A stretch of 39,568 bases of DNA from an uncultured Bacteroidota bacterium (GTDB taxonomy: Bacteria; Bacteroidota; Bacteroidia; Chitinophagales; Chitinophagaceae), in the NCBI GenBank assembly GCA_903905685.1, contig CAIVHI010000319.1:1-39568 (forward strand), in the 5' to 3' direction. The notes below the pieces were generated by a model. That model did not search any database and was not told the origin of the DNA. It saw only the letters and a program-made list of their open reading frames with translations. Made by a program: the position numbers and the translations under genes. Of this stretch, positions 1,031-35,552 are shown one piece after another (position 1 is the first letter of the stretch; each line of letters opens with the position of its first letter).

Positions 1031-2029
1031 TTAGTAGTAATTGATGCCAATCAGTTTGCGAGCCTCGACAATGGTTTTGGATGCACTATCTCGGGCTTTT
1101 TCTGCACCTGTTTTCAAAATACGGCGGATGCTTTGTTCGTCCTGCTGCAGCTCAGTGGCTTGTTCCCGAATGGGACGGATGAAGTTCGCCAAGTCTTCTG
1201 CAAGTTGTTTTTTAAGGTCTCCGTAGCGTATGTTGCAATTGTTGTAAGCCGCAAGATAGTGTGCTGCAATCTCGGGTGTAGCGGTTGCGTTGAGCAACAC
1301 AAAAAGGTTTTGGATATAATCCGGCATCACGCTGTTGGGCTCTTGCGGGCCGGCATCGGTTTTGGCCTTCATTATTTTCTTCCTTATCGTGGCATCGTCA
1401 TCGCACAGGTAGATGGTGGCGGCCTCGTTTTCGCTCTTGCTCATTTTACCGTTACCGTCCAAGCTCAAAATCTTTAAGGTCTCATGGTTGGAGCGGTACA
1501 CATGCGGTTCGGGGAACAGTTCCCCATAGCGGGTATTGAAACGTTGTGCAAAGTTGCGCGCCATTTCGAGGTGTTGCTCTTGGTCTTTGCCCACGGGCAC
1601 CTTTACGGCTTTGTGTATCAAGATGTCGGCGGCCATGAGCACGGGGTAGGTGAGGAGGCCGGCATTCACATTGTCGGGTTGTTGGCGCACCTTGTCTTTA
1701 AATGTTGGTACTTTTTCCAGTTCGCCTTTGTAGGCCATCATGTTGAGCATGAGGTACAATTCGGGAATCTCCGGAATGTCGCTTTGCGCATACAGCGCCA
1801 CTTTGTCGGGGTCCAAGCCTGCGGCTATGTTTTCGGCCACCACCCTGAAAACGTTGGCCTTTAGGCTCTTAGGGTCAGGGTGGGTGGTGAGGGAGTGGTA
1901 GTCGGCTACAAAAAAGTAACATTCCTGTTCTTCCTGCATCACTACATAGTTTTGGATGGCTCCAAAATAGTTGCCCAAATGCAGATTGCCTGTAGACCTG
2001 ATACCGCTTACAACGATTGCTCTGCTCAT
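1031..2029 (-). CDS. trpS: Tryptophan--tRNA ligase
   Basis: Class I aaRS HIGH-type motif (GNLHLGNYFGA) and a verbatim KMSKS loop. The 332-aa length and overall pattern fit TrpRS. Confidence 0.93.
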   Translation of the reverse strand: MSRAIVVSGIRSTGNLHLGNYFGAIQNYVVMQEEQECYFFVADYHSLTTHPDPKSLKANVFRVVAENIAAGLDPDKVALYAQSDIPEIPELYLMLNMMAYKGELEKVPTFKDKVRQQPDNVNAGLLTYPVLMAADILIHKAVKVPVGKDQEQHLEMARNFAQRFNTRYGELFPEPHVYRSNHETLKILSLDGNGKMSKSENEAATIYLCDDDATIRKKIMKAKTDAGPQEPNSVMPDYIQNLFVLLNATATPEIAAHYLAAYNNCNIRYGDLKKQLAEDLANFIRPIREQATELQQDEQSIRRILKTGAEKARDSASKTIVEARKLIGINYY

Positions 2030-2195
2030 AGCGCGAAGATAAGCTTTGTAGGCTATTTATATCCCGAACGCCCGGTTTGAGCGGCGGCGATTGATTGGGG
2101 TTTGCAATTAATTGATTGTAAATCAAGCACTAATGATACAGAGTAACACTGGGGACCGATGTTGGGGGGCATAACCGCTCCCGAGTGCGGCATGC

Positions 2196-4598
2196 CTATT
2201 TTACATCGAGCGGCACGGAGACCATGAAGCTGAAGTTGCGCCCGGGATTGAAAATGCCCATCCGGCCCGTGGTCAGGTTTTCATCCGTATACCGCAGGCG
2301 GCTCAACGAATTTTGGTAGGCTACATTCGTCAGGTTGTTTGCGGTAATGGTGAGGGTGCACCAATTTTGGTGTTTTGCACCCATGATGTCGGCACCCACT
2401 CCGGCATTCAATAAGGTGTACCCAGCACAGGGCGTCTCAGTGCCGTAGGCGGTGAAGACATTGTTTTGAGCCCAGTTCACATCCAAGCCCACTTTTGCAT
2501 AGGGGTTTTTCAAGAATTTCGTGAACGCCTTAGGCTGCGCCTTGAGCTCTACCAGCCAACGTGGTGGCGGCATATAAGGCAGGTTGTTCGTCCCTTCTAT
2601 AGATTGCGACAAATTGCCCCTAACGTAGGAGAACGTGTTTTCCAAGTGAAGCCACTCCAATAACGCCGGGTGGTAGTCTGCAAAAATCTCCCCACCATAT
2701 AGGTTGGCTGCCCCCTGGGTGTAGATGAAGCCCGAGTATTTGCCGGGATTGGCATAAATGGGTATGGAGTCCAGTTTGCGGATGTAGATGTAGTTTTCTA
2801 TATAGTTGTTGAACAATGCGGCATTCACCATCAGGTGCTTTGAGCTCCAGTTCACGCCCAAGTCGCATTGGTAGCTGTGTTCGGGGTGTAGGCCGGTATT
2901 ACCTATTTCGTAGCGGTAGGTGCCATCATGCACCCCGTTTGCCGAAAGCTCGGCGATATTGGGGGAACGGTATCCGCTTGCGAAATTGAATTTGAATATC
3001 GTATGCGCGTTCAAATTGTAGCCCACTCCCAAACTGCCCGAGATATTGGAGAAATTGTCTGTGAACGGCTTGAAAATCTCATAAGCCGATATTTTCTGCT
3101 TGATAGCCGGATCGGAATCTTTGCCATATGATTCAATTTTCCGCATGTCGTAGCGTATCCCGCCGGCCACCGTCCACTTGCCAATGTTCTTCTTGCCCAT
3201 GCCATACACCCCGCCATCAAACAGGTTGTAGTCGGGCACCAGGAATTCCGTGCCTTTGTTGAAGTTCCATTGGGTCATTCCGTTTACGCCCACGCTCACT
3301 TCCCAGCCGCTAATCATGGGCATGAAATACTTCAGGTCGTAGGTGGCGGTGCGTAACTCGAGCGAGAGTCCGGGTGCATCGGGCTCCAATACATCGTTGA
3401 ATTCCATGCGGCGGTTACGTTGGTATCCCAAATTGAAGCCGATACGGCCGCCGTTGCCCAAGTAGATGTTGTCATCCCAAACCAGTTTTTGGTGGTAAAT
3501 GTGTTGGTAGGGCACCGTCATGGCATAGTTACGGCCGTCGGCATTGGTTACCAACTGTTGTACATCGGTGTTGTGCAGGTTTACGTCTTTAAGGAAGGTT
3601 CCCGTAGCGGTGTCTCGCGTTCCCTCCGGTATGCCCGTTTTTTCGTTGAACGACGTATACGTGAGGCGCGAAGACCCCCAACTGCGGTTCACCCCAATGG
3701 TTGCGCCATAGTCAACATTCTGAAAACGGGTGTCGTATACGTATCCGTCATACTTGTCTTGGTAGTCGTGCGACATCTTGCCTGTACCATATACTTTCCA
3801 GCTAAAACCATGCTCATTGCCACCCAGATCGGCATGTAAAGCCGCAAGGCCGGAGTTGGTTTGGTAGTTGGTGGTAACGTTGCCGTTTATTTTGCCCTCT
3901 GGTATGTCGGGATTGGAAATGATGTTCACCACGCCCGCCAGCGCATCTGAGCCATAGGCCAACGAAGCGGGCCCTTTCAACACTTCAATACGGGTCACAT
4001 TGTAATCGTCTATCTCTATACCGTGTTCGTCGCCCCACTGTTGGCCTTCTTGGCGCACGCCGTCGTTGAGGGTGATGATGCGGTTGTAGCCCAAGCCGCG
4101 AATGACGGGCTTGGATACCGAAATGCCCGTGGTAAGTGCCGTCACGCCGGGGAGATTGGCAATGGCGTCAATGACATTGGTGGAGGCGTTTTGGTGCATC
4201 TCCTGTATGCCGATGCTCTGAATGGGCGTTATGCTTTGGCGTTCCTCGGTGGCCAAACTCAGGCCCGTAACCACCACCGCATTTTTTTCGATATAGCTCT
4301 CCGATAGTGTGAAATCCTTCTTGGTTTCCCCATCTATGGTTACTTGGGTATTGAGGGTGCCGTAGCTCAGCAGGTGCACCTCTACCAAATAGGTACCCTT
4401 GGGCAGGTTGCTGATGCGGTAAGTGCCGTCGCTGTCGGCAGCCGCACCGGTTTTCAAATCGGTGATTTCAATTACCGCACCTTGAAGTCCCAGACCCTTG
4501 CCATCCGTTATCTTACCCGACAGCGCATTGCCCGCCATTGCATCGCGGCAAAGACCGAGCAGCAAAAAAATAAGCAGGTATAAACGTATTGGTTTCAT
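2196..4598 (-). CDS. TonB-dependent outer-membrane receptor with an N-terminal carboxypeptidase-regulatory-like domain
   Basis: Signal peptide MKPIRLYLLIFLLLGL... A CarboxypepD_reg-like beta-sandwich (GKITDGKGLGLQGAVIE..GTYLVEVHLLSY). Plug motifs (IEVLKGPASLAYGSDALAGVVNI) followed by a long beta-barrel. The ORF track begins at 4631; I prefer the ATG at 4598. No SusD-like partner is adjacent. Confidence 0.9.
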   Translation of the reverse strand: MKPIRLYLLIFLLLGLCRDAMAGNALSGKITDGKGLGLQGAVIEITDLKTGAAADSDGTYRISNLPKGTYLVEVHLLSYGTLNTQVTIDGETKKDFTLSESYIEKNAVVVTGLSLATEERQSITPIQSIGIQEMHQNASTNVIDAIANLPGVTALTTGISVSKPVIRGLGYNRIITLNDGVRQEGQQWGDEHGIEIDDYNVTRIEVLKGPASLAYGSDALAGVVNIISNPDIPEGKINGNVTTNYQTNSGLAALHADLGGNEHGFSWKVYGTGKMSHDYQDKYDGYVYDTRFQNVDYGATIGVNRSWGSSRLTYTSFNEKTGIPEGTRDTATGTFLKDVNLHNTDVQQLVTNADGRNYAMTVPYQHIYHQKLVWDDNIYLGNGGRIGFNLGYQRNRRMEFNDVLEPDAPGLSLELRTATYDLKYFMPMISGWEVSVGVNGMTQWNFNKGTEFLVPDYNLFDGGVYGMGKKNIGKWTVAGGIRYDMRKIESYGKDSDPAIKQKISAYEIFKPFTDNFSNISGSLGVGYNLNAHTIFKFNFASGYRSPNIAELSANGVHDGTYRYEIGNTGLHPEHSYQCDLGVNWSSKHLMVNAALFNNYIENYIYIRKLDSIPIYANPGKYSGFIYTQGAANLYGGEIFADYHPALLEWLHLENTFSYVRGNLSQSIEGTNNLPYMPPPRWLVELKAQPKAFTKFLKNPYAKVGLDVNWAQNNVFTAYGTETPCAGYTLLNAGVGADIMGAKHQNWCTLTITANNLTNVAYQNSLSRLRYTDENLTTGRMGIFNPGRNFSFMVSVPLDVK

Positions 4599-6524: not shown

Positions 6525-8237
6525 ATGTCTGCAATCAACTTCAATACATCGAACCAGACCTATAGGCAACTCATGGGCAATGGGCTGCTGTTTCATGTGC
6601 CAAGGTTTCAGCGAGACTACAGCTGGACTGACGAAGAATGGGACGACCTTTGGGCGGATATCCAAGGTCTTTTTGGCGAAGACCCCGAGCCGGCGCACTA
6701 CATGGGCTACCTCGTGCTGCAATCAAAGGATAGTAAGAAGTTTGACATCATTGATGGGCAGCAACGGCTAACAACTCTAAGCATTTTCACCCTCGCGGTT
6801 TTGAAGAATTTCGATCTATTGATTGAGATGCGTATTGACCCCGAGAACAATAAAAGGCGCCAGGTACAACTTAGAGGTTCTTTCATTGGTTACCTCGACC
6901 CCGTAACGTTGATTCCGCAATCCAAACTCACGCTGAACCGCAACAATGATGCCTACTATCAAAATTACTTGGTGCCGTTGTTAAAGTCGCCCGTAAGGGG
7001 GTTGAAGTATACCGAACATCAAATGCGCAAGGCGTTCGAGTGGTTTGATCGGAAAATAAAGGAGGAGTACACGGTAAAGAAGGATGGTGCAATGCTCGCG
7101 TCCCTACTCGACCATTTGACCGACAAGCTTTTCTTCACCGTAATAACCGTAACCGACGAGTTGAATGCCTACAAGGTTTTTGAAACGCTCAACTCGAGGG
7201 GGGTAAAATTGTCGGCTACCGATTTGTTAAAGAACTACCTTTTTTCGGTGGTGCACCGCGAGGGAAACGACGGTTTGGAATTGGATAAGCTGGATGAAAG
7301 GTGGCAACAGCTGGTTGGGATTTTGGGTAGCGAGAGCTTTCCCGATTTTTTGAGGGCGCACTGGAATAGTCGCAACAAATTCGTGCGAGCTGCAAACCTC
7401 TTTAAAACCATTCGTGCCCAAGTGGCCAACCGGGGACAGGTATTCGATTTGATGCGGGCGATGGAAATGGATGCCAATACCTATGTGGCCCTCTCGAGGC
7501 CCGAAGACGACCAGTGGCATGCAGAACAGAAACGGTATGTAGAGGAGCTCTCCATGTTTCACGTGCGGCAGGTTTACCCACTATTATTGGCAGCTTATCG
7601 AAAATTTGACAACGCTGACTTTACCCGCCTGCTTAAGGCATGCAGCATCATTTCGTTCAGGTACAACGTCATAGGCAACCTACCTCCAAATGAGCAAGAA
7701 AGGTTGTACACCGGCGTGGCGGTACAAGTGCACGATGGAGTTGTTAACACGGTGAATCAGGTTTTGGGAAAGCTGAAGCCGCTGTATCCGGATGATGAAG
7801 CATTTTCTCGGCTTTTTTGCGATAAACAACTCAAAACCTCACAAGCCAGAAATAAACGCATTGTCCGGTATTTGCTATTCAAGCTTGAAAGGCGGGTTTC
7901 AGGTGGTAGCGATTACGATTACGACAGTGATGTTTTTAGTATTGAGCACGTGCTTCCGGAATCTCCAGGCCTTGGCTGGGAACAATTTGGCGATGCCGAC
8001 CATGAGGCCTTCGTTTATCGCTTGGGCAATATGACGTTGATGAAATTTAACGACAATCTGGAAATTGGGAATGCGCCCTTTGACGTTAAGAAAGTGAAGT
8101 ATGCGGAAAGCAAGTTCGAGATTACCCGCAAGATAGCTACAGACAATAGCGAATGGACAATGGCGCGCATTGCGGAGCGGCAACAATGGATGGCCAAACA
8201 GGCTACAGCAATTTGGAGAATCGCGCAGTTGGGTTAA
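6525..8237 (+). CDS. DUF262/DUF1524 two-domain protein (GmrSD-like; candidate type IV modification-dependent restriction endonuclease)
   Basis: N-terminal DUF262/ParB-like signatures FHVPRFQRDYSWTDEEWDDLWADI and DGQQRLTTL (nt 6753-6767 encode DGQQR). C-terminal DUF1524 HNH-like signatures FSIEHVLPES and YRLGNMTLMKFNDNLEIGNAPF. A spot count of line 6781 gives about 42% G+C, lower than neighbouring housekeeping genes. Confidence 0.85.
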   Translation: MSAINFNTSNQTYRQLMGNGLLFHVPRFQRDYSWTDEEWDDLWADIQGLFGEDPEPAHYMGYLVLQSKDSKKFDIIDGQQRLTTLSIFTLAVLKNFDLLIEMRIDPENNKRRQVQLRGSFIGYLDPVTLIPQSKLTLNRNNDAYYQNYLVPLLKSPVRGLKYTEHQMRKAFEWFDRKIKEEYTVKKDGAMLASLLDHLTDKLFFTVITVTDELNAYKVFETLNSRGVKLSATDLLKNYLFSVVHREGNDGLELDKLDERWQQLVGILGSESFPDFLRAHWNSRNKFVRAANLFKTIRAQVANRGQVFDLMRAMEMDANTYVALSRPEDDQWHAEQKRYVEELSMFHVRQVYPLLLAAYRKFDNADFTRLLKACSIISFRYNVIGNLPPNEQERLYTGVAVQVHDGVVNTVNQVLGKLKPLYPDDEAFSRLFCDKQLKTSQARNKRIVRYLLFKLERRVSGGSDYDYDSDVFSIEHVLPESPGLGWEQFGDADHEAFVYRLGNMTLMKFNDNLEIGNAPFDVKKVKYAESKFEITRKIATDNSEWTMARIAERQQWMAKQATAIWRIAQLG

Positions 8238-10987: not shown

Positions 10988-11494
10988 CTACTCCAACGTT
11001 ATTTCCGCCTCAAACTGCAAATGCATTCTGTACTGGCGCTTGAAAATCTCCCTTATCTCTTTGTCAGACCCGTGAAAGTGGGGAGAGGGATGCTTGGAAT
11101 TTGCGACGATTGCTTTCCTTTTTTTGAAGCCGAAATAATATTCAGGTATTTCCAAAAGCATCCGCTTTACTGTGGCTTCTATTTGCCCCAGTCCTTCAGA
11201 TTTCCAATCCGCCCGCTTGGTCTTCAATTCCACAAACACCAGCCTATCCTCATATTGTAACATGGCGTCGCACCTGCTTTCCATCTCGCCGTTATCCCTG
11301 CAAATGTCGATACAGTTATCTATCGCGGTAAATTGAATGGTCTTCGGCGGCGAGGCGTTAACAACGGTCGCAATCCATTTTTCGCTATGGTCAATATTCA
11401 AGAATGCCGGACTTTTGTCGTCCCTATCACAAATGCCGAACCGCATTTCACTCGTAGTACACCTACATTCCGATTGAAAGAAATCAACCTTCAT
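10988..11494 (-). CDS. 168-aa Cys-rich protein with a PD-(D/E)xK nuclease-like core; partner of the upstream ATPase
   Basis: The ATG at 11494-11492 overlaps the ATPase stop (TGA 11486-11484) by 11 nt. The core hairpin is ..SRC-D76-AMLQYEDRLVFV-E89-L-K91-TKR, and nt 11230-11222 encode ELK. It is preceded by FTAID59NCID63IC and six Cys (C10, C12, C22, C61, C65, C75). I recognise no other family signature. Confidence 0.6.
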   Translation of the reverse strand: MKVDFFQSECRCTTSEMRFGICDRDDKSPAFLNIDHSEKWIATVVNASPPKTIQFTAIDNCIDICRDNGEMESRCDAMLQYEDRLVFVELKTKRADWKSEGLGQIEATVKRMLLEIPEYYFGFKKRKAIVANSKHPSPHFHGSDKEIREIFKRQYRMHLQFEAEITLE

Positions 11495-12704
11495 TTTCTT
11501 CTTGAATTTCTAAGAGTTGGTCATAAAGTTGGTTGGTATCGGCGAGCGATTGGTTCAGGTAATTTTTATCCGACGGAATTCCGTAATAGTCGGGGAGTTT
11601 CCTGATAGTCCCACCTTTTTCGTCAAATTCATAAATCACTACGTCATCAGGGTTCGTCATAGACATCGGTGCCACAATGGCATCCAACTTTTCTCGGAGT
11701 AGGTCTGATTTCAGTTCCCCATTTACCTGAAAAGCCTTGATCGACAAGGTGAGGTAGTCTATCATATAGGGACTATGCGTTGTCACCACCAACTGGTTCC
11801 AGGGCAGCAAGTGGTTGAACTGTAGCAAGCTGTACAGTATTTCCTTTTGGGAGGTCGGAAATAGGTTCTGTTCCGGTTCTTCCACGATATTGACGAAGCG
11901 TTTACTGTGGTATTTGGAATAAATCAAGGCTTTCCGTTGATTCCGTTCTTGCTTCGAAAGCCCGGAATCCAAATCGACCCTATCGATTTCCTGTTCCCGT
12001 CTAATCCGATATTCGGGCGATAATTCGGCTAGTTCGGGCACATGCTCAAAATGTACTTTCATAGCCAAATATCTGGTCACAAGGTAAAGGGGCACCAAGG
12101 ACTGGAACCCGCTGGAAGCAGTCAGCAAACTCAGATTCTTAAAGTCGCTGCCCGACAGGAAGGAACGTGAATCTTTATACTCATAAACCGTATTGCCAAG
12201 CGGCAATTCCAAAGCAAGTCCGTTCAAGCCATTTTGCGCCCTAATCAGCTCACGTGCAAAGGTGTCGAGCGGCCCAGGGAGGCCGGAAATGCCGAAGGAT
12301 TCCTTTATGGTGCTCAGGAAATTCCTTTCCGAAGGCACATACATTATTTTGGGCACGAGATAATCATGCCCGTCCGACTCCTTGGCATAATACCCTAATG
12401 CCTCACTGGCGCTGATAAAATATTTCTCTCCCCAATATTCAATAACGGTATCTTTTTTCCAATACTCCCTAATACCCTGCCATTCCAATTTATTTAGAAA
12501 GTCTTCTACATAAGTAATTTTAAAATCCCCCCTGTTTAACGCCTTCTCCATCCAAATAAACATCGAAATCAGCTTAGCCACGGTACTCTTGCCGCTGCCT
12601 TGATTGCCAATGAAGACGGTCACCTTTTTGATGTCGAGCCAGCCGCCGTTCTCCAAACAGCCTTCCTTGATGGGGCCGAAATTCTTGATTTTGATCTTGC
12701 TCAT
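11484..12704 (-). CDS. ABC/SMC-like ATPase of the AAA_15/AAA_21 type
   Basis: Walker A G33-NQGSGKST-41 follows an IKIKNFGPIK N-terminus. Also present are the signature-like ASSGFQSL, the Walker B/D-loop FVNIVEEPEQNLFP and the H-loop TTHSPYMI. Length is 406 aa. Spot counts of lines 11881, 12001 and 12421 give about 37-45% G+C, against about 57% for line 13741 in the GH92 gene. Confidence 0.85.
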   Translation of the reverse strand: MSKIKIKNFGPIKEGCLENGGWLDIKKVTVFIGNQGSGKSTVAKLISMFIWMEKALNRGDFKITYVEDFLNKLEWQGIREYWKKDTVIEYWGEKYFISASEALGYYAKESDGHDYLVPKIMYVPSERNFLSTIKESFGISGLPGPLDTFARELIRAQNGLNGLALELPLGNTVYEYKDSRSFLSGSDFKNLSLLTASSGFQSLVPLYLVTRYLAMKVHFEHVPELAELSPEYRIRREQEIDRVDLDSGLSKQERNQRKALIYSKYHSKRFVNIVEEPEQNLFPTSQKEILYSLLQFNHLLPWNQLVVTTHSPYMIDYLTLSIKAFQVNGELKSDLLREKLDAIVAPMSMTNPDDVVIYEFDEKGGTIRKLPDYYGIPSDKNYLNQSLADTNQLYDQLLEIQEENEG

Positions 12705-19939: not shown

Positions 19940-21781
19940 CTATTCCCCTACTGCGTGCAGGGCATTCCGAGCTTGGAGAAAGTTGGGGTTGAGCCGCAAT
20001 ACGGTGTGCCAGCGGGCAGCGGCTTGGGCGGGCTGCCCGTGCAGGTAGTAATATACCCCTAAGTTGTAGTCCAATTCGGGAAGTTGGGGGTAGGTGGGCA
20101 GGAGTACCAATATGCGGTCGTAGCTGCGCGCTGCCTCATCGGGGTTCCCCATTCTGAAGCACGCCAAGCCGCGATTGATGAGTGGGGGGAGGCAGGTGCT
20201 GTCCAGCTTCAAGGCTTTGTCCAAATAGGCCACACCTTGCATCAACAACTGCACTTTACGAGCCGAGTCCTTTGCATCATCGGCCGCATTCACATATGCT
20301 ACGCCCAAATTGGCATTTACCAACAGGCTGTTCGGCACGGTCTTCACGTCGTGCTCATACAAAGTGAGGTCGTTCTTCCAGTCGGTATTGCGGGCCATGG
20401 TAGCTGTAGCGCACAGGAGGCACAGGATGAGTACGATGGCCCCAATTGGCTTTTGCAAATTGGGGCCATATTTTTCATGGCACCAATTTCCCAGGGCTAC
20501 CATGCAAATGATGCCTCCCATCGATGCATGATACAGGAGACGCTCGCCCATGGTGCCCCCTATGTTGATGAGCCAATTGTTCACCATCAGCAAGCTGAGG
20601 AAGTAGAAGGCAAGCCCAAACGCCACGGCACGTTGTTTTTTATAGGTAGCCCAAATGCCTACCAACAAGCCGGCATGATAAATTACAGATAACCCTACCA
20701 ACGGTGAGCCCAACGTTTTGTAGGGAATGGTGTTGTAGGAATAGTCGCAGGAAAGGGGGAAAGGAAAAAAGAGCAGGCGTAAATAGTTGAGGGGCGTAGC
20801 GATTACGGTTGCAGCTTTTTGCAATGGGGTAGCCAATGCATAGGGATTGTTCCAAATGTCGTTGTCTATCTCGGCGGCAGAGAACCCAACCACCTTTATC
20901 CGAATGAGTGCATAGAGCACTGCTACCGCATAAAAAGGCATGGAGCCTTTTAAGGCTTCAAGGGGAGTCTTGCCATTGAACCACACCATGGCAAGCGGCA
21001 ATAAGATGAGTAGGGCAAGCCCATATTCTTTGGAGAGCAGGGCGAACAAAAAGCAAATCGGCCCCGCAAAACCAGCCCACTTGTGCCGCACCCTGTTTGT
21101 GCCGCAAGCCAAAATGAAGGTGAGGCATATGAATGCCAAAGAGCATATTTCATCCCGGCTCTTTACGTTGGCCACTACCTCGCTGTGCACCGGGTGGCAG
21201 GCGAAAAGCAGGGTAGCCGCCAGTGCTGCCATAGGGCTCCCCCTGAAAACAACCATCCGCAGCATCCCCAAAAGGGCCACCAATCCGAGCCCGAAGAACA
21301 GCACATTGTCGAAGTGCCTGATGTGCATAGCATGAATCAAGGCATCCCGTTGCGCGCCTTTGTCGCCCGCATGGGCCACCACGCTGTCTACCGCATCTGC
21401 CGATACCGGCCCCAAAAACTGTTGTTCTATTGCAAACGTGGCTATCGACAATGGTCGGTAGCGCCCGCCGGCGAGCATGTTTTCGGTATTGGTCGTTTTG
21501 CAGTAGCTGTAAAAAGCGTCCTTCGAGAAAATGCCTTCCAAGCCTTCCAAGCCGCGGTAAACAAACTCGTTTTTCAGGATGACTATGTTGTCGTCGAGGG
21601 CATATTCATTCCCAATAGTATTGCCGTACAGTACAAACGATACTGCGAATACCAACAGCGCATGAACGCTGAACAGGCGGGTCCAATGCGCGGGCGGTGC
21701 AGCTATACTTCCCGGTATAGAAGCCGATGCAGTAAAGTCCGTCGGTCCGTTTTTTTGCGCCTGTTTCTGTTTGGAGGACAT
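19940..21781 (-). CDS. Polytopic membrane protein with C-terminal TPR repeats (TMTC/DUF1736-like, GT-C glycosyltransferase-like)
   Basis: YALDDNIVILKNEFV, GGRYRPLSIATFAIEQQF and HPVHSEVVANVKSRDE motifs in a multi-TM N-terminal part. The C-terminus is TPR-like (..YNLGVYYYLHGQPAQAAARWHTVLRLNPNF..). Confidence 0.75.
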   Translation of the reverse strand: MSSKQKQAQKNGPTDFTASASIPGSIAAPPAHWTRLFSVHALLVFAVSFVLYGNTIGNEYALDDNIVILKNEFVYRGLEGLEGIFSKDAFYSYCKTTNTENMLAGGRYRPLSIATFAIEQQFLGPVSADAVDSVVAHAGDKGAQRDALIHAMHIRHFDNVLFFGLGLVALLGMLRMVVFRGSPMAALAATLLFACHPVHSEVVANVKSRDEICSLAFICLTFILACGTNRVRHKWAGFAGPICFLFALLSKEYGLALLILLPLAMVWFNGKTPLEALKGSMPFYAVAVLYALIRIKVVGFSAAEIDNDIWNNPYALATPLQKAATVIATPLNYLRLLFFPFPLSCDYSYNTIPYKTLGSPLVGLSVIYHAGLLVGIWATYKKQRAVAFGLAFYFLSLLMVNNWLINIGGTMGERLLYHASMGGIICMVALGNWCHEKYGPNLQKPIGAIVLILCLLCATATMARNTDWKNDLTLYEHDVKTVPNSLLVNANLGVAYVNAADDAKDSARKVQLLMQGVAYLDKALKLDSTCLPPLINRGLACFRMGNPDEAARSYDRILVLLPTYPQLPELDYNLGVYYYLHGQPAQAAARWHTVLRLNPNFLQARNALHAVGE

Positions 21782-21817
21782 ACGATTTCGACTTCTATCC
21801 CAATGAAAACAAACAAA

Positions 21818-23731
21818 TTACCTGCCAATTACGGGTGCACCCACCACGCTCAACGCATGTGCCGCATCCTTATTTCCCGGGTCTATCTTCAATGACGATT
21901 GCCAGCAAGAGACGGCCTTGGGGTACTCTTTGTGGAGGTAGAAAAACACGCCCAAGTTGTAAAAGAACTCGCCCAGCCGAGGATACTTGGGGTAGTACGT
22001 CTTCACTACCTCAAAATCGGTTTTGGAGCTATCGGCATAAACCGTGTGCAGGCTGTCGAGTTGCCCCAATTTGAAGTAGGCCAACCCCAAGTTGAAATAG
22101 CCGATGACGTAGGTGTTGTGCAGCGACAGTACCTTTTTAAGCAACACCACCCCATGCTCCAATTCCTCCTTCTTCTTGGCCGGATTAGGTTCTATGTTCG
22201 ACATATCGATGTAGGACGATGCTACATTGGCATTGATGATGATGCTGTTCGGCGCGTTTTTCAAGTCGTGGGAGAACAGGGTGAAATTGTTTTTCCAGTC
22301 GGCGTTGCGGGCCACGGTCACCCAACTGCAAAGCAACAGTATCACGGTAGTGCCGCCCAATAGTACCAATCGGCCGGTTTCAGGCGACTTTATTTTTTGG
22401 AATCCCAAGTAAGCAAAATAGCCGAAAGCGATGGCGAAGCCTACCGATGAATGGTAAATAAGGCGTTCGCCCATGGTGGCACCGATGTCGAAAAACAGGT
22501 TGCAAACCAACATCAAGTGCGACAGATACATCCCGATGGCGAAACTCAACACGTTTTTGCGTTTCAGGTAGTAGAAGAATGCCCGCACCAGCCCAAGGTG
22601 GAATATCAGCGAAAGCCATACCATGGGGTGCAAAAAGTCTTTATAGGGAATCTGGTTGTAGGAATAGTCGGCCGACAGCGGGTAGGGGAAAACCAACAGG
22701 CGGAAGTAGTTGAATGCCGTTGAAATCTCTGTAGCCATTTTCTCCTTGTCCGACGCCAATGCATACGGGTTGTTGAGCAGGTCGGTGTTCGAGGCCTCGT
22801 TCATGGGAGCCACAATGTGGCTGCGTATGGCGTAATAAACTATGAAAACCAACAAGTAAGGCCATACCGATGTAATGCTTTTTCCAACCGAGAAGCCCTG
22901 AAACAAGTAGAGGGCGAGCGGCAACAGGACGAGCACCGTGATGGCATATTCCTTGGAAAGGAAGGCCAGGAAGAAGAGCACCATGGCTGAAATGAGGGAA
23001 ACCAACTTTTTCTCCTGCACATATTTGAAGGCGAAAATGTAGGTGAGGCACATGAACATCAACGACATGATTTCATCGCGGCTCTTTACATTGGCAATCA
23101 CCTCGGTATGTATGGGGTGTACTGTAAATAGGGCGGCTGCAAGTAGTGCCATGATCGGGTTGGACCTAAAGACGATAAACCGCAGGAAGTAAAGCAGCGT
23201 TATCATGGACAGCGTGAACCAAACGACATTGAAGAAGTGCCGTATGTGCATGTTGCGATTAAGGATCACCTCTTGCGGGCCTTTTTCGTCGGCATGGGTC
23301 ACAACGCTGTCGATAGCACTTTGGGGAACCGTGCCCATAAACTGCTGCTCTATGGCAAATGTGACGATGGAGAGCGGACGGTAACGCCCGCCTGACAGTT
23401 GGTTGCCGGTTTTGAACTGTTTGTAGTAGCTGTCGAACGCATCGGTGGTCAGGATGGTGGGGATGCCTGTAAATCCTTGATACACGTATTCGTTTTTCAG
23501 GATGACCGCAGTATCGTCCAAGGCATATTCATTGCTTACGGTATTGATGTAGAGTAAGAAAGATAGGACGGCAATGATGATGGCCTGAACCTTGAAACTG
23601 GAGAGCCACGCCGGAAAAAGGGAGTCGACGTCAACAAATGGAATCGGGTTGGAAAGGCTCGGTGCCGGCTTTGGTGTCGGTCTTGCCGGATTAGCAACAG
23701 GAATATTCTTCGATGTCTGTTTTTTAGCCAT
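21818..23731 (-). CDS. Tandem paralogue of the preceding TMTC/DUF1736-like TPR membrane protein
   Basis: It has the same motif series (YALDDTAVILKNEYV, GGRYRPLSIVTFAIEQQF, HPIHTEVIANVKSRDE) and a TPR tail. It is collinear with 19940-21781 along its whole length. Confidence 0.75.
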   Translation of the reverse strand: MAKKQTSKNIPVANPARPTPKPAPSLSNPIPFVDVDSLFPAWLSSFKVQAIIIAVLSFLLYINTVSNEYALDDTAVILKNEYVYQGFTGIPTILTTDAFDSYYKQFKTGNQLSGGRYRPLSIVTFAIEQQFMGTVPQSAIDSVVTHADEKGPQEVILNRNMHIRHFFNVVWFTLSMITLLYFLRFIVFRSNPIMALLAAALFTVHPIHTEVIANVKSRDEIMSLMFMCLTYIFAFKYVQEKKLVSLISAMVLFFLAFLSKEYAITVLVLLPLALYLFQGFSVGKSITSVWPYLLVFIVYYAIRSHIVAPMNEASNTDLLNNPYALASDKEKMATEISTAFNYFRLLVFPYPLSADYSYNQIPYKDFLHPMVWLSLIFHLGLVRAFFYYLKRKNVLSFAIGMYLSHLMLVCNLFFDIGATMGERLIYHSSVGFAIAFGYFAYLGFQKIKSPETGRLVLLGGTTVILLLCSWVTVARNADWKNNFTLFSHDLKNAPNSIIINANVASSYIDMSNIEPNPAKKKEELEHGVVLLKKVLSLHNTYVIGYFNLGLAYFKLGQLDSLHTVYADSSKTDFEVVKTYYPKYPRLGEFFYNLGVFFYLHKEYPKAVSCWQSSLKIDPGNKDAAHALSVVGAPVIGR

Positions 23732-26561: not shown

Positions 26562-27059
26562 ATGCAACGGGAAATAGTAGTCGTCAGACATGCAAAAACA
26601 GAGAGCGTTAGCCGCGCAGGGGACGATTTTTCGCGAACTCTTACGTCGGTGGGGGAGCGCGATGGAGAAGCCATAGGTAAGTTTTTGAAGGAACAGGGCA
26701 TTAAGCCCGATTTGATGCTTGTGAGCTCGGCCAAGCGCACCCGCCGAACAGCCAAAATATTGGCTACTGCATTGGATATTACCCCTGAGCACATCAAGTA
26801 TGAAGATAAACTCTATCTCGCTACCGATTCCGCAATAGAAACCGAGGTGATGACGGTACCGAACAACATTGCCACACTTGTAGTGGTAGGGCACAACCCC
26901 GGCATTACCGATTTCGTCAACGGGATTTCTAAAGATTTCGTTCTCGGTCACCTGCCCACATGTGGAGTAGTTGCCGCCAAGTTTGAGGCCGATACCTGGG
27001 CAGATTTTCCTGCCGCCGTAAAAAACATCACCCTCATCAAATTTCCGAAACATGAATAA
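26562..27059 (+). CDS. sixA: SixA-like histidine phosphatase (phosphohistidine phosphatase family)
   Basis: N-terminal VVRHAKTE (RHG-type catalytic motif) and VVGHNPG in a 165-aa protein. It overlaps the next ORF by 8 nt. Confidence 0.7.
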   Translation: MQREIVVVRHAKTESVSRAGDDFSRTLTSVGERDGEAIGKFLKEQGIKPDLMLVSSAKRTRRTAKILATALDITPEHIKYEDKLYLATDSAIETEVMTVPNNIATLVVVGHNPGITDFVNGISKDFVLGHLPTCGVVAAKFEADTWADFPAAVKNITLIKFPKHE

Positions 27060-28515
27060 TCATTTGGGCAAACCTGCAGCACAGACATTGGGGATACTGG
27101 AGAACCTTTTTGCAGGCCATTTTGGACGTAACCCAGAATCCGTAGTCACTTTGGGAGTGTCGGGGTCCGACCGTCGTTACTATCGCCTTACCGGTGGTGG
27201 AGACTCCGTAATAGGTACCTACAATATGAATGTGGCCGAAAACAATGCGTTTTTCTATGCCACGGAATTGTTTCGCCGGCACGGTATTTCGGTGCCCGAA
27301 GTGTATATCATCAACAAAGACCGTCGCGCCTATCTTCAGCAGGATTTGGGCAATGTATCGTTGTTCGACCGGGTTACCGGGGATGGTTATACCGATGAGG
27401 TGCGTAAATATTACCACCGCTCGCTACACCAATTGGCCAAGGTGCAATGGATAGCGGGTAGGGATGCCGACTACCGCCAATGCTTCACCTCCCGCCAATT
27501 TGACGAGAAGGCCATAATGGCCGACCTCCTATATTTCAAATACTATTTTGCCGACCTCCAAGACATTCCCTACAATAAGGCGGCCATGGCCGATGAAATG
27601 GAATTGTTGAGTCGCGACCTTGGCCGGGTGCAACCGCAAACTCTGATGTATCGCGACTTCCAGAGCCGCAATATCATGTTGCACGACGACAAGCCCTATT
27701 TCATAGACTATCAAGGGTTTATGCAGGGGCCACCGCAATATGACCTGGCATCTGTGCTTTGGCAGGCCAAAGCCCGTCTGCCCGAGGCTTGGAAGGAAGA
27801 CCTGCTCAATGGCTACATCTCCGCCCTCGGGGACCTTCATGTGCCCCGTATGGATGAAATCTATTTTCGGCGTGGATACGTCCAATTTGTCCTCATCAGG
27901 TTGCTTCAAGTTCTGGGTGCTTATGGTTTCCGGGGGTTGTTGCAACAAAAGACGCACTTCATCACCAGCATTGGTCCTGCATTGCAGCATTTGTCGCTGT
28001 TTTTGGAGAGCCATCCGCAAACCCCGCCTTATCCCGAGTTGCGCACGTTCCTCGAAAAGGTCTCTTCTGCCGAAATCCAGAAAAAGTATGCTGCGGCGGT
28101 GGCACCACAGGCACCCGCCCTTAAAGTATATATAGAGAGCTTCTCCTACAAAAACGGCATCCCTACTACCGACAGCCTCCATGGAGGCGGTTATGTGTTC
28201 GATTGTCGCGGGATAGAGAACCCCGGTCGCTATGAGCCCTACAAACAACTTACCGGGCTTGACGAGCCGGTGAAGCAGTTTTTGGAACGCGAATCGACGA
28301 TGCCCGATTTTATGAATCACGTGAATGCCATGGTGGGCATGCACGTCACCAATTTTGTGGAACGTGGGTTCGATGAACTGCGTGTCTCCTTCGGGTGCAC
28401 CGGTGGCCGTCACCGGTCGGTATATGCTGCCGAGAAATTGGCCAACTACCTGAAGTACCGCTTCGGGATTGAAGTTGTGCCGATACATACGAATAAGGAT
28501 AATTGGGTGAAATAG
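27052..28515 (+). CDS. Fusion protein: AmgK/APH-like sugar (aminoglycoside-type) kinase domain plus RapZ C-terminal domain
   Basis: The N-terminal part has the APH/AmgK catalytic loop YRDFQSRNIML and FIDYQGFMQGPPQYDLASVLW. From about nt 28084 the C-terminal part follows the RapZ C-terminal domain pattern: VYIESFSYKNGIP..GGYVFDCRGIENPGRYEPYKQLTGLDEPVKQFL..VSFGCTGGRHRSVYAAEKLANYL. There is no P-loop. Confidence 0.75.
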   Translation: MNNHLGKPAAQTLGILENLFAGHFGRNPESVVTLGVSGSDRRYYRLTGGGDSVIGTYNMNVAENNAFFYATELFRRHGISVPEVYIINKDRRAYLQQDLGNVSLFDRVTGDGYTDEVRKYYHRSLHQLAKVQWIAGRDADYRQCFTSRQFDEKAIMADLLYFKYYFADLQDIPYNKAAMADEMELLSRDLGRVQPQTLMYRDFQSRNIMLHDDKPYFIDYQGFMQGPPQYDLASVLWQAKARLPEAWKEDLLNGYISALGDLHVPRMDEIYFRRGYVQFVLIRLLQVLGAYGFRGLLQQKTHFITSIGPALQHLSLFLESHPQTPPYPELRTFLEKVSSAEIQKKYAAAVAPQAPALKVYIESFSYKNGIPTTDSLHGGGYVFDCRGIENPGRYEPYKQLTGLDEPVKQFLERESTMPDFMNHVNAMVGMHVTNFVERGFDELRVSFGCTGGRHRSVYAAEKLANYLKYRFGIEVVPIHTNKDNWVK

Positions 28516-33963: not shown

Positions 33964-34008
33964 CAACGGATTAAGCCCGAGCCAATTTGGCTCGGGCTTA
34001 ATCCGTTG
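33964..34008 (+). terminator. Long perfect hairpin after the small secreted protein gene
   Basis: caacggattaagcccgagcca (33964-33984) is the exact reverse complement of 33988-34008. The stem is about 20-21 bp with a 3-nt loop and no U-tract. Confidence 0.55.
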
Positions 34009-34202: not shown

Positions 34203-35552
34203 ATGGCAGCAGCATGTATCGTTTTCGCAGATATTGTCGGCTTTTCAACCAAGCGTACGAGTCTACAGCGGGAGGTGATAGACTCGTTCAATAAAGAATT
34301 GCGCACTTTTCTATCGCAATTTTTCGACCCATTGACGGGTGAGTCGGAAGTTATTGCATTGCCGACAGGCGATGGTGCTTGTCTGTCCTTCCTCTTAGAC
34401 AACGATCGGCGCCGATGGAATGAGAAAACGATATTCGAATTGTGCATCCTGTTGCATAAGTGGGCGTACGAAATGAGTACTCCGGAAAACTCCGTGCAGT
34501 TGCGCCTCGGGGTGCATATGGGCATTGTCGATATCGTGCTTGACCTCAACAATAAAAAGAACGTTGTGGGCGATACCATCAATTTTGCTGCCCGTGTGAT
34601 GAGTGCCGCAAAAGCACGCCAAACGTACATTTCAGACACCGTTTTCAACGAATATGTAGGGGTGGCCACCCAATCGCTGGGTATAAGGGCCGGCGGTAAA
34701 GATTATCGTGTCCGCTTCGGCAAACCGGTAAAAATCTTCGCGAAGCACGACCGGGAGCTCACCTTGCATGATATGCTGTTGGAACCGCATGAGCGATTTA
34801 TGGATGCAGCCGGTGAAGAAGATGCACTGGGTGCCGGCGGCAAGACAATCCAGATTGAAAGGTTGGAATTCGAACCCGAGATGGTATTCGTTAATGGTGG
34901 GGTATTCAAAATGGGCAGTAAGGATGGCCAAAATTCCGAGAAGCCCATACACACAGTGGAAGTGGGCGACTTCCTTATCGGAAAATATCCGGTTACGCAA
35001 AAGCAGTGGAAGGCAGTAATGGGCAACAATCCCTCCAAGAATAAGGACAACGATAATCATCCTGTTGAACGGGTTTCGCTCGCGGAGGTGCAGGAATACA
35101 TCAAAAAACTTAATGAGAAGACCGGTAAGAGATACCGCCTGCCCACTGAGGCCGAGTGGGAATATGCGGCCAAAGGCGGAGATGCGAGCCAAGGGTTTAT
35201 ATATGCCGGTGGCAACGATTTGAAGGAAGTGGCTTGGGACTCTGAAAACAGCAAGGGCTCTACCCAAGCGGTGGGACTCAAAAAACCGAATGAACTTGGA
35301 TTGTACGATATGACCGGCAATGTTTGGGAATGGTGTAACGATTTTTATGACGAAAAATATTATTCGGTGAGTCCGGAGAAAGACCCTAAGGGTCCTGCCA
35401 ATGGCGACAACCGCGTAATAAGGGGTGGCAGTTGGATCAATTTCCCAGCCCGATACCGCACCACCGACCGCTACTTCAATTACCCCGGCGACCGTCGCAC
35501 TTACTTGGGGCTAAGGCTAGCATGCTCGTTAGACTATCCTATGGGGCTGTAA
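34203..35552 (+). CDS. Fusion protein: class III adenylate/guanylate-type nucleotidyl cyclase domain plus non-catalytic FGE/SUMF1 (formylglycine-generating-enzyme-like) domain
   Basis: The cyclase core starts at residue 5 (CIVFAD10IVGFS) and continues with LPTGD57GACLSF, LRLGVHMGIV and VVGDTIN127FAAR131V. The C-terminal half has MVFVNGGVFKMGS, HTVEVGDFLIGKYPVTQKQW, NHPVERVSLAEVQEYIKKLN, YRLPTEAEWEYAAKGG, GLYDMTGNVWEWCNDFY and RVIRGGSW. It lacks the FGE Cys pair, and no signal peptide or TM segment is seen. Confidence 0.85.
   Translation: MAAACIVFADIVGFSTKRTSLQREVIDSFNKELRTFLSQFFDPLTGESEVIALPTGDGACLSFLLDNDRRRWNEKTIFELCILLHKWAYEMSTPENSVQLRLGVHMGIVDIVLDLNNKKNVVGDTINFAARVMSAAKARQTYISDTVFNEYVGVATQSLGIRAGGKDYRVRFGKPVKIFAKHDRELTLHDMLLEPHERFMDAAGEEDALGAGGKTIQIERLEFEPEMVFVNGGVFKMGSKDGQNSEKPIHTVEVGDFLIGKYPVTQKQWKAVMGNNPSKNKDNDNHPVERVSLAEVQEYIKKLNEKTGKRYRLPTEAEWEYAAKGGDASQGFIYAGGNDLKEVAWDSENSKGSTQAVGLKKPNELGLYDMTGNVWEWCNDFYDEKYYSVSPEKDPKGPANGDNRVIRGGSWINFPARYRTTDRYFNYPGDRRTYLGLRLACSLDYPMGL

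Follow-up and report, generated by a model that had tools for sequence, protein, structure and literature searches.

The window analysed here is the whole stretch of 39,568 nucleotides at positions 1 to 39,568 (forward strand) of contig CAIVHI010000319.1, assembly GCA_903905685.1, from an uncultured member of the Chitinophagaceae (Bacteroidota), and the gene under study is a complete open reading frame (ORF) encoding a fusion of a class III nucleotidyl cyclase with a domain related to formylglycine-generating enzyme (FGE). Judged from the sequence and a structure model, the product is, on balance, a soluble class III cyclase whose output is probably controlled by its C-terminal domain, a predicted non-enzymatic binding module of the TvpA type. 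The parts of the gene that bear on this reading are listed below, with conservation counts referring to 76 aligned members of a clade of related cyclases.

34203 to 35552, plus strand: complete ORF of the cyclase-FGE-like fusion protein (P0001), 449 aa, with orthologues of the same length at 65-89% identity
34203 to 34787, plus strand: class III nucleotidyl cyclase domain, residues 1-195 (Pfam core 4-148), delimited by Pfam, AlphaFold2 (AF2), Foldseek and clade conservation
34230 to 34232, plus strand: codon of D10, the first metal-binding Asp (FADIVGFS), 76/76 in the clade
34359 to 34373, plus strand: L53-P-T-G-D57, with Leu at the purine-specifying Lys/Glu position (64/76) and the second metal-binding Asp (76/76)
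34560 to 34595, plus strand: N120 (the specificity Asp/Cys position) to N127 and R131 (the transition-state pair), in NVVGDTINFAAR, from HMMER alignment to 5oyh/6sir, 3et6 and 1ybt and from clade conservation
34788 to 34871, plus strand: inter-domain linker, residues 196-223, of low conservation and low model confidence
34872 to 35522, plus strand: FGE-sulfatase/C-type-lectin-fold domain, TvpA-like and predicted to be non-catalytic, residues 224-440 (Pfam E 3.5e-54; best PDB match TvpA 2y3c)
35421 to 35450, plus strand: RGGSW followed by INFPA, in the place of the Cys-x4-Cys copper site of active FGEs (alignment to 6muj and 5nxl)

The two domains named in the initial annotation of this DNA, which had been made from the sequence by eye, were both recovered by Pfam: residues 4-148 match Guanylate_cyc (39.2 bits, cut-off 21.9, E 7e-10) and residues 224-440 match FGE-sulfatase. 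The annotation had also proposed that no sensor precedes the cyclase. The cyclase domain indeed begins at residue 4, and an in-frame stop lies 6 codons 5' of the ORF start, so the protein cannot be N-terminally longer. Since the peak Kyte-Doolittle hydropathy over 19 residues is 1.2, neither a transmembrane (TM) segment nor a signal peptide is indicated, as the annotation had held, and the protein is predicted to be soluble and cytoplasmic; a secreted or periplasmic protein was ruled out by the absence of a signal peptide, a TM segment and a possible upstream start. The low G+C content (43-48%) that spot counts had suggested was not reproduced: the gene has a G+C of 0.498 against 0.508 for the window (sd 0.032 across 1350-bp windows, with the gene at the 42nd percentile), and this normal composition rules out a horizontal-transfer island recognisable from low G+C.

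The catalytic core of a class III cyclase appears intact, and the domain is apparently active. D10, L53, D57, N120, N127 and R131 all occupy the positions given in the initial annotation and are invariant in the 9 full-length orthologues (65-89% identity). Across the 76 clade members, D10, D57, G123 and R131 are universal and N127 is kept in 74, while the K181-H182 motif, carried by a clade-specific C-terminal beta extension of the domain, is kept in 69-70. The base-specifying pair Leu53/Asn120 is neither the Lys/Asp of ATP-using nor the Glu/Cys of GTP-using cyclases; it should be noted that the canonical pair marks substrate classes, not membership of the class III family. In HMMER alignments N120 falls opposite Cys/Asp566 of rhodopsin guanylyl cyclase and its Cys counterpart in 3et6, and L53 lies four residues before D57, in the same place as the N of the N-T-A-G-D motif of Rv1900c. 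The non-canonical pair reported earlier is therefore supported by HMMER for N120 and by motif spacing for L53, and the alignment yielded intact catalytic residues around it, not a canonical pair in a degenerate site. The accompanying suggestion of an unusual nucleotide specificity fared less well. Leu53 is found in 64 and Asn120 in 71 of the 76 clade members, which indicates that the Leu/Asn pocket is a clade signature under selection and is not peculiar to this protein; the base of the product is not predictable from this pocket, and Leu/Asn alone foretells no unusual product.

The same residues bear on the possibility that the cyclase-like domain lacks cyclase activity in vivo and is instead a nucleotide binder or dimerisation scaffold in a protein that would act through its FGE-like domain as an adaptor or binder. 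Inactive cNMP (cyclic nucleoside monophosphate) cyclase domains are known in conflict systems (PMC7159879), and the Pfam score is modest at 39 bits. Yet invariance of the catalytic residues in the orthologues and their retention across the 76 clade members (N127 in 74/76) is unexpected for a degenerate domain, and we regard this explanation as very improbable.

The C-terminal domain carries all four structural SUMF1 motifs quoted in the initial annotation (GKYPVTQKQW, LPTEAEWEYAA, GNVWEWCND and RGGSW). Compared with the FGEs of S. coelicolor and T. curvata, the target is three residues shorter at the copper-binding segment LCHDSYC and has no Cys there, and the protein as a whole has cysteines only at positions 5, 60, 81, 378 and 441, with none between the last two. 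The claim that the domain has no Cys pair and is not an FGE was upheld on realignment to solved FGEs, and an active FGE is ruled out by deletion of the copper-binding pair. An enzyme of the EgtB or PvdO type was likewise rejected, all NCBIfam equivalog scores falling far under their cut-offs, and no sulfatase gene was found among the window genes scanned. The top PDB sequence match is TvpA of Treponema denticola (2y3c, E 1.8e-33), which Foldseek also placed first (E 1e-20, rmsd 1.6 A, 34% identity, target TM score 0.73), ahead of true FGEs (E about 1e-19), PvdO and PorK; a viral fold library returned only generic FGE-like and tail-fibre lectin-fold matches. TvpA is the variable protein, and the ligand binder, of a diversity-generating retroelement (DGR). 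No repeat touches positions 35200-35552 in the window, a distant template repeat (TR) being possible, no reverse transcriptase (RT) was found in Pfam scans of the window or among the called genes of the orthologue loci, and the segment equivalent to the variable repeat (VR) of TvpA shows no less conservation among orthologues than the remainder of the domain. The domain was therefore rejected as a DGR target, there being no TR/VR repeat, no RT and a conserved VR-like region. Taken together, the domain is predicted to be non-enzymatic and of the ligand-binding (TvpA) type.

Signalling or effector domains that carry a C-terminal FGE-type domain are a well-known sensor arrangement (PMC7159879). 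Relatives in which the domain follows a Pkinase or a peptidase show 50-58% identity to it. The closest relatives by FGE domain (P0013-P0018, about 50% identity) include 774-aa proteins with dockerin, PPPDE peptidase and FGE domains and others combining Pkinase with FGE, an assortment showing that one FGE module is shuffled behind various enzymatic heads.

An AF2 monomer model was built from a 133-row mixed alignment of orthologues, cyclase-clade members and FGE-domain relatives; the 9 orthologues alone gave an unusable model (pLDDT 49). The mean pLDDT is 92.7, mostly 90-98 in the cyclase domain and below 50 only at linker residues 205-217 and the C-terminal tip, and Foldseek matched residues ~1-195 to the guanylyl cyclases 3et6 and 5oyh (target TM score 0.73-0.75). 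The linker is also the sole fast-evolving part of the protein, at 12-30% identity against 66-82% for the domains in orthologues other than P0002, which is 89% identical overall and 83% in the linker. The tether between the two domains is thus predicted to be flexible.

In class III cyclases the active sites are formed only across a dimer interface. Combined with a flexible tether, this makes it most likely that a ligand would act by promoting or re-orienting cyclase dimers. The ligand would bind the lectin-fold domain, and binding, for example to a multivalent or oligomeric ligand, would bring the cyclase domains into productive dimers; the activated cyclase would then form a 3',5'-cyclic NMP, to be read in trans by a receptor encoded elsewhere in the genome. 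Several points weigh against this scheme. Gating by dimerisation is drawn from general properties of class III cyclases, and the AF2 pTM of 0.65 leaves the inter-domain geometry uncertain. The equivalence of L53 to the specificity Lys/Glu was taken from motif spacing because HMMER puts gaps just before the LPTGD motif. In addition, immune modules normally have their effector alongside, and a signal read in trans would be atypical for them.

The architecture is rare and uncharacterised. In a 5.8-billion-protein collection both domains were present in 9 of the best 120 matches, all 436-449 aa long and metagenomic, with the other matches among these 120 having only the FGE domain in common with the target, and the fusion forms about 10 clusters at 90% identity. 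The single GTDB representative with the fusion is an uncultured Bacteroidetes metagenome-assembled genome (L006), the sole taxonomically labelled contig. Gene order is locally preserved: L001 is syntenic with the window (DUF4890-target-GT4 in both), and L002 and L006 both have a DinB_2 gene downstream of the target. The neighbours in L003-L005 are KdpD, a histidine kinase and a Na+/H+ exchanger, and L025 has a beta-propeller gene. None of L001-L006 and L025 has an effector-like, TIR, cNMP-binding or mobility gene adjoining the cyclase-FGE gene. Six cyclase-FGE contexts, the window and 5 other distinct ones, have neighbour annotation, and the earlier statement that no effector adjoins the gene holds for all of them. 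The survey that the initial annotation had proposed thus found about 10 clusters with no adjacent TIR or cNMP-binding effector, and not a common, characterised protein. A HepT/MNT (nucleotidyltransferase) toxin-antitoxin pair ~4 kb from the orthologue in L002 (3586-4210) is the only defence-like gene noticed near any member of the family.

Between the window and L001 the target is 88.6% identical, compared with 72.6% for NamZ, 81.6% for DUF4890 and 68.1% for GT4, which indicates that the target is more strongly constrained than its housekeeping neighbours. In its lineage the protein appears to behave as a stably inherited, strongly constrained gene. The genes 5' of it encode RelA/SpoT, an FKBP isomerase, NamZ and a DUF4890 protein, and those 3' of it are convergent GT4 glycosyltransferases and a GH130 fragment; elsewhere in the window most genes have housekeeping functions (TrpRS, dNK, a TonB receptor, aldehyde dehydrogenase, TIM, GH92 and GH125). 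One further feature lies immediately upstream.

33964 to 34008, plus strand: perfect 20-bp terminator-like hairpin (12 G-C pairs, 5-nt loop), unusually long, 3' of the upstream DUF4890 gene

The hairpin separates the DUF4890 gene from the cyclase-FGE transcription unit, and with the downstream gene convergent, the cyclase-FGE gene is predicted to be monocistronic. TIR hidden Markov models (HMMs) matched no ORF in the window or in L001-L006, and L025 likewise showed no TIR gene; a check of limited sensitivity found no cNMP-binding gene in the window (40 kb) or L001-L006, and PADLOC gave no significant system match.

One rival explanation is ordinary physiological signalling by cAMP or cGMP, in which a conserved endogenous cytoplasmic ligand (a peptide or metabolite) would bind the FGE-like domain and Crp/Fnr-type or other cNMP-binding regulators elsewhere would read the product, an account that is possible if somewhat unlikely. 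Strong purifying selection and local synteny (window and L001; L002 and L006) favour it, as does the core-genome context of RelA/SpoT, FKBP, NamZ and glycosyltransferases, and the non-canonical pair is compatible with an adenylyl cyclase, the sequence of Rv1900c having N/D at these positions. Rv1900c has adenylyl cyclase activity, and Rv0386 offers a further non-canonical pair, Gln/Asn. However, the cyclase domain groups with TIR-linked proteins and not with characterised physiological cyclases (E of only 1e-6 to 1e-9 for PDB cyclases, against 1e-42 for clade members), the distribution of about 10 clusters is very narrow, and the limited-sensitivity check of the 40-kb window found no cNMP-binding gene.

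The ancestry of the cyclase domain was traced by an exhaustive search of residues 1-206 against 1.84 billion cluster representatives, which gave 1906 matches; a plain search with the 206-aa domain had given no matches and a profile search only proteins of at most 360 aa. The closest relatives (E 1e-42 to 1e-20, 35-47% identity) begin, like the target, with the cyclase at residue 1-3 (M-x-A-A-x-I-x-F-x-D-I-V-G-F-S), and share with it the motifs LPTGDG and D-x-N-x3-N-V-x-G-x-T-I-N and the terminal A-K-H. Their C-terminal modules comprise two orphan families of ~190 aa, TM plus extracytoplasmic segments, TPR, and AAA_16 plus TPR, and FGE occurs only in the target's own cluster. A scan of a genome collection with a 15-sequence query alignment returned 17 loci, among them the cyclase-FGE orthologue L006, and 13 of the others (L007-L018 and L020) are close cyclase relatives at 35-44% identity. 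In 9 of these 13, the cyclase gene is immediately preceded, in the same orientation, by a 156-aa ThsB-like TIR gene (PF08937, E 1e-16 to 1e-24), and in 3 more, adjoining ORFs match TIR HMMs less strongly (E 1.6e-5 to 6e-3). According to their record titles, the nine span Ignavibacteria, Cytophagia, Anaerolineales, Verrucomicrobiota, beta- and gammaproteobacteria and Armatimonadetes. The cyclase module of the target appears to derive from this TIR-linked clade.

The second gene of these modules encodes a protein of ~386 aa in which the Leu/Asn cyclase is followed by an orphan 190-aa domain, here called X. The nine TIR + cyclase-X modules, each with PF08937 and a Leu/Asn cyclase, are located as follows.

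L009, 4676 to 6322: TIR + cyclase-X module
L010, 6517 to 8161: TIR + cyclase-X module
L011, 4628 to 6413: TIR + cyclase-X module
L012, 45 to 1503: TIR + cyclase-X module
L013, 6521 to 8158: TIR + cyclase-X module
L014, 6500 to 8152: TIR + cyclase-X module
L016, 6518 to 8188: TIR + cyclase-X module
L017, 6517 to 8161: TIR + cyclase-X module
L020, 6357 to about 7456: TIR + cyclase-X module

Domain X carries the motifs ALIQLTG, FWVFMP, YFGASFxDW and IHVSPYVW and has no Pfam or PDB sequence match. The cyclase partner is not recognised by PADLOC 2023, and no nucleotide cyclase effector figures in a 2025 survey of Thoeris types. The module looks like a TIR-based defence system for which no description was found in the literature, and may be a more interesting lead than the cyclase-FGE fusion.

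TIR association extends to other arrangements within the clade. Stand-alone cyclases are followed by TIR genes in L023 (6001-8287, 316 aa) and L024 (6001-7904, 256 aa), the former also having Nmad2, thymidylate synthase and HMUDK-like kinase genes nearby and the latter transposase fragments. Direct TIR_2-cyclase fusions are found in P0290 (JGI 3300047160, genes 344-1426, 1451-3391 and 3072-4463), whose gene adjoins a STAND (AAA_16/AAA_35) NTPase gene and a WD40 beta-propeller gene, and in P0299. In a 2026 preprint, cNMP cyclases with immune roles fall into two clades, one associated with STAND and the other comprising Pycsar/Pucsar (10.64898/2026.08.12.744502). The Leu/Asn clade, for which no characterised member was found in the literature, could belong to the STAND-associated clade.

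This ancestry raises the possibility, which we consider unlikely, that the protein is a single-gene sensor-effector against phages or other mobile genetic elements, in which the lectin-fold domain would recognise an invader protein and the cyclase would either be the effector itself, through NTP depletion or a toxic cNMP, or trigger an unlinked effector, leading to abortive infection. A ThsB-like or other TIR adjoins the nearest cyclase relatives (35-47% identity) in 12 of the 13 closest loci and in L023 and L024, one relative is fused to TIR beside a STAND-WD40 gene, and type I restriction-modification, integrase or transposase genes are often found in the relatives' contexts. FGE/TvpA-type domains have been proposed as antigen sensors in conflict systems (PMC7159879; PMC10907252), and the architecture is rare and patchy. 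The target's own record differs on each of several counts: it is more conserved than NamZ, DUF4890 and GT4 between the window and L001, its segment equivalent to the TvpA VR is conserved like the rest of the protein, its G+C is normal, it is surrounded by housekeeping genes and none of the six annotated contexts has an integrase, TIR or effector, and there is neither a DGR nor a significant PADLOC match.

Both the immune and the physiological reading overlap with the molecular model favoured here, that of a cyclase controlled by a binding domain. The TIR-linked descent of the cyclase and the literature on FGE sensors point toward immunity; purifying selection, core-genome context, normal composition and the absent effector point toward a conserved physiological signal. 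Since the flanking housekeeping genes are less conserved than this one, and it lies outside defence islands, immune and physiological roles are equally likely. In the physiological case, an immune-type module would have been retained under strong constraint in a core-genome setting. A rather improbable further reading is that the protein is a TIR-independent offshoot of the TIR + cyclase defence family, itself a family for which no description was found, with the TvpA-type domain sensing an invader or a conserved danger ligand and the Leu/Asn cyclase making a cNMP other than cAMP or cGMP; the protein would then be a one-protein device leading from pattern recognition to a second messenger.

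Other loci in the window were noted in passing. A GmrSD-family type IV restriction endonuclease is encoded among housekeeping genes at 6525-8237 (plus strand; GmrSD_N E 5e-39, GmrSD_C E 1e-27), and a 406-aa AAA_15/AAA_21 (AbiEii/OLD-like) ATPase, together with an overlapping 168-aa ORF with no Pfam match, at 10988-12704 (minus strand). Both enzymes lie more than 20 kb from the cyclase-FGE gene. The segment 10988-12704 is the lowest-G+C stretch of the window (0.45) and may be a small defence or toxin-antitoxin insert. Tandem paralogues of 613 and 637 aa with C-terminal TPR occupy 19940-21781 and 21818-23731 (minus strand), the second matching the PMT_2 glycosyltransferase family; the pair (19940-23731) gives rise to direct repeats 1917-1923 nt apart that are 70-76% identical. 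At 27052-28515 (plus strand), a 487-aa protein joins an APH-type phosphotransferase domain to a RapZ C-terminal domain, a pairing of which we know no other example.

Both building blocks, and the idea of fusing an enzyme to an FGE sensor, are already known. The cyclase-FGE fusion itself is rare and uncharacterised, and no characterised member of its Leu/Asn cyclase clade was found. Cyclases and FGE/lectin-fold sensors both have a recognised place in bacterial signalling and immunity, and the two-domain fusion offers an unusually simple test case for a lectin-fold sensor gating a dimeric cyclase. Identification of the product would hence assign a nucleotide to the whole clade, including its TIR-linked members.

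Comparison with known systems places the protein between several of them. With canonical class III cyclases (Chlamydomonas guanylyl cyclase 3et6, rhodopsin guanylyl cyclase 5oyh/6sir and M. tuberculosis Rv1900c 1ybt) it shares the fold, the metal-binding Asp and the Asn/Arg residues, but its base-specifying pair is Leu/Asn, not Lys/Asp or Glu/Cys. The motifs LPTGDG, D-x-N-x3-N-V-x-G and AKH are specific to the target's clade, and the target has no N-terminal regulatory domain. Similarity to solved cyclases is low, at 17-18% in Foldseek alignments and with a best E of 2.8e-6. The TIR-linked clade is much closer (35-47% identity over the cyclase domain, with N-terminus, Leu/Asn pocket and AKH in common), and differs in that most context-checked members have an adjoining or fused TIR and no FGE, whereas the target family has the FGE-like domain and no TIR.

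Pycsar (PycC) and Pucsar (PucC) cyclases are short, stand-alone, class III-like enzymes with non-canonical pockets that produce cNMP immune signals (PMC11224242; 10.64898/2026.08.12.744502). The analogy with Pycsar drawn in the initial annotation proved weak. The best PADLOC PycC match is slight (E 1.3e-4, 19.2 bits) and other models gave E >0.01; the nearest relatives form a separate, TIR-linked clade, and named Pycsar cyclases are absent from the 35 PDB sequence matches and 50 Foldseek matches listed. Pycsar loci have an adjoining effector with a CNBD (cyclic nucleotide-binding domain) and TIR or with TM segments, whereas the target has none and carries a fused sensor domain instead. The protein was not classed with Pycsar, given the weak PycC HMM scores, the missing effector and the absence of a named Pycsar cyclase among the PDB sequence matches and the listed fold matches.

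On the C-terminal side, the target resembles FGE (SUMF1) in Pfam family, fold and structural motifs, but it has no pair of copper-binding catalytic Cys, its loop is 3 residues shorter, and it is predicted to be cytoplasmic and is fused to a cyclase. TvpA agrees with it in fold, sequence and predicted lack of catalysis, and the placement of the domain C-terminal to another functional domain conforms to the 'syntax' described for conflict systems (PMC7159879); in contrast to TvpA/DGR sensors, neither an RT nor a TR/VR repeat is present in the window, and there is no vWA, STAND or MoxR partner. Finally, the overall layout of an N-terminal class III cyclase with a C-terminal sensor or regulatory module is that of the mycobacterial cyclase-STAND-TPR proteins of the Rv0386 type, a layout shared within the clade by P0129 (cyclase + AAA_16 + TPR) and L015 (cyclase + TPR). 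Rv0386 has a non-canonical Gln/Asn pair. Relative to Rv0386, the FGE-like module of the target takes the place of the NTPase/TPR module.

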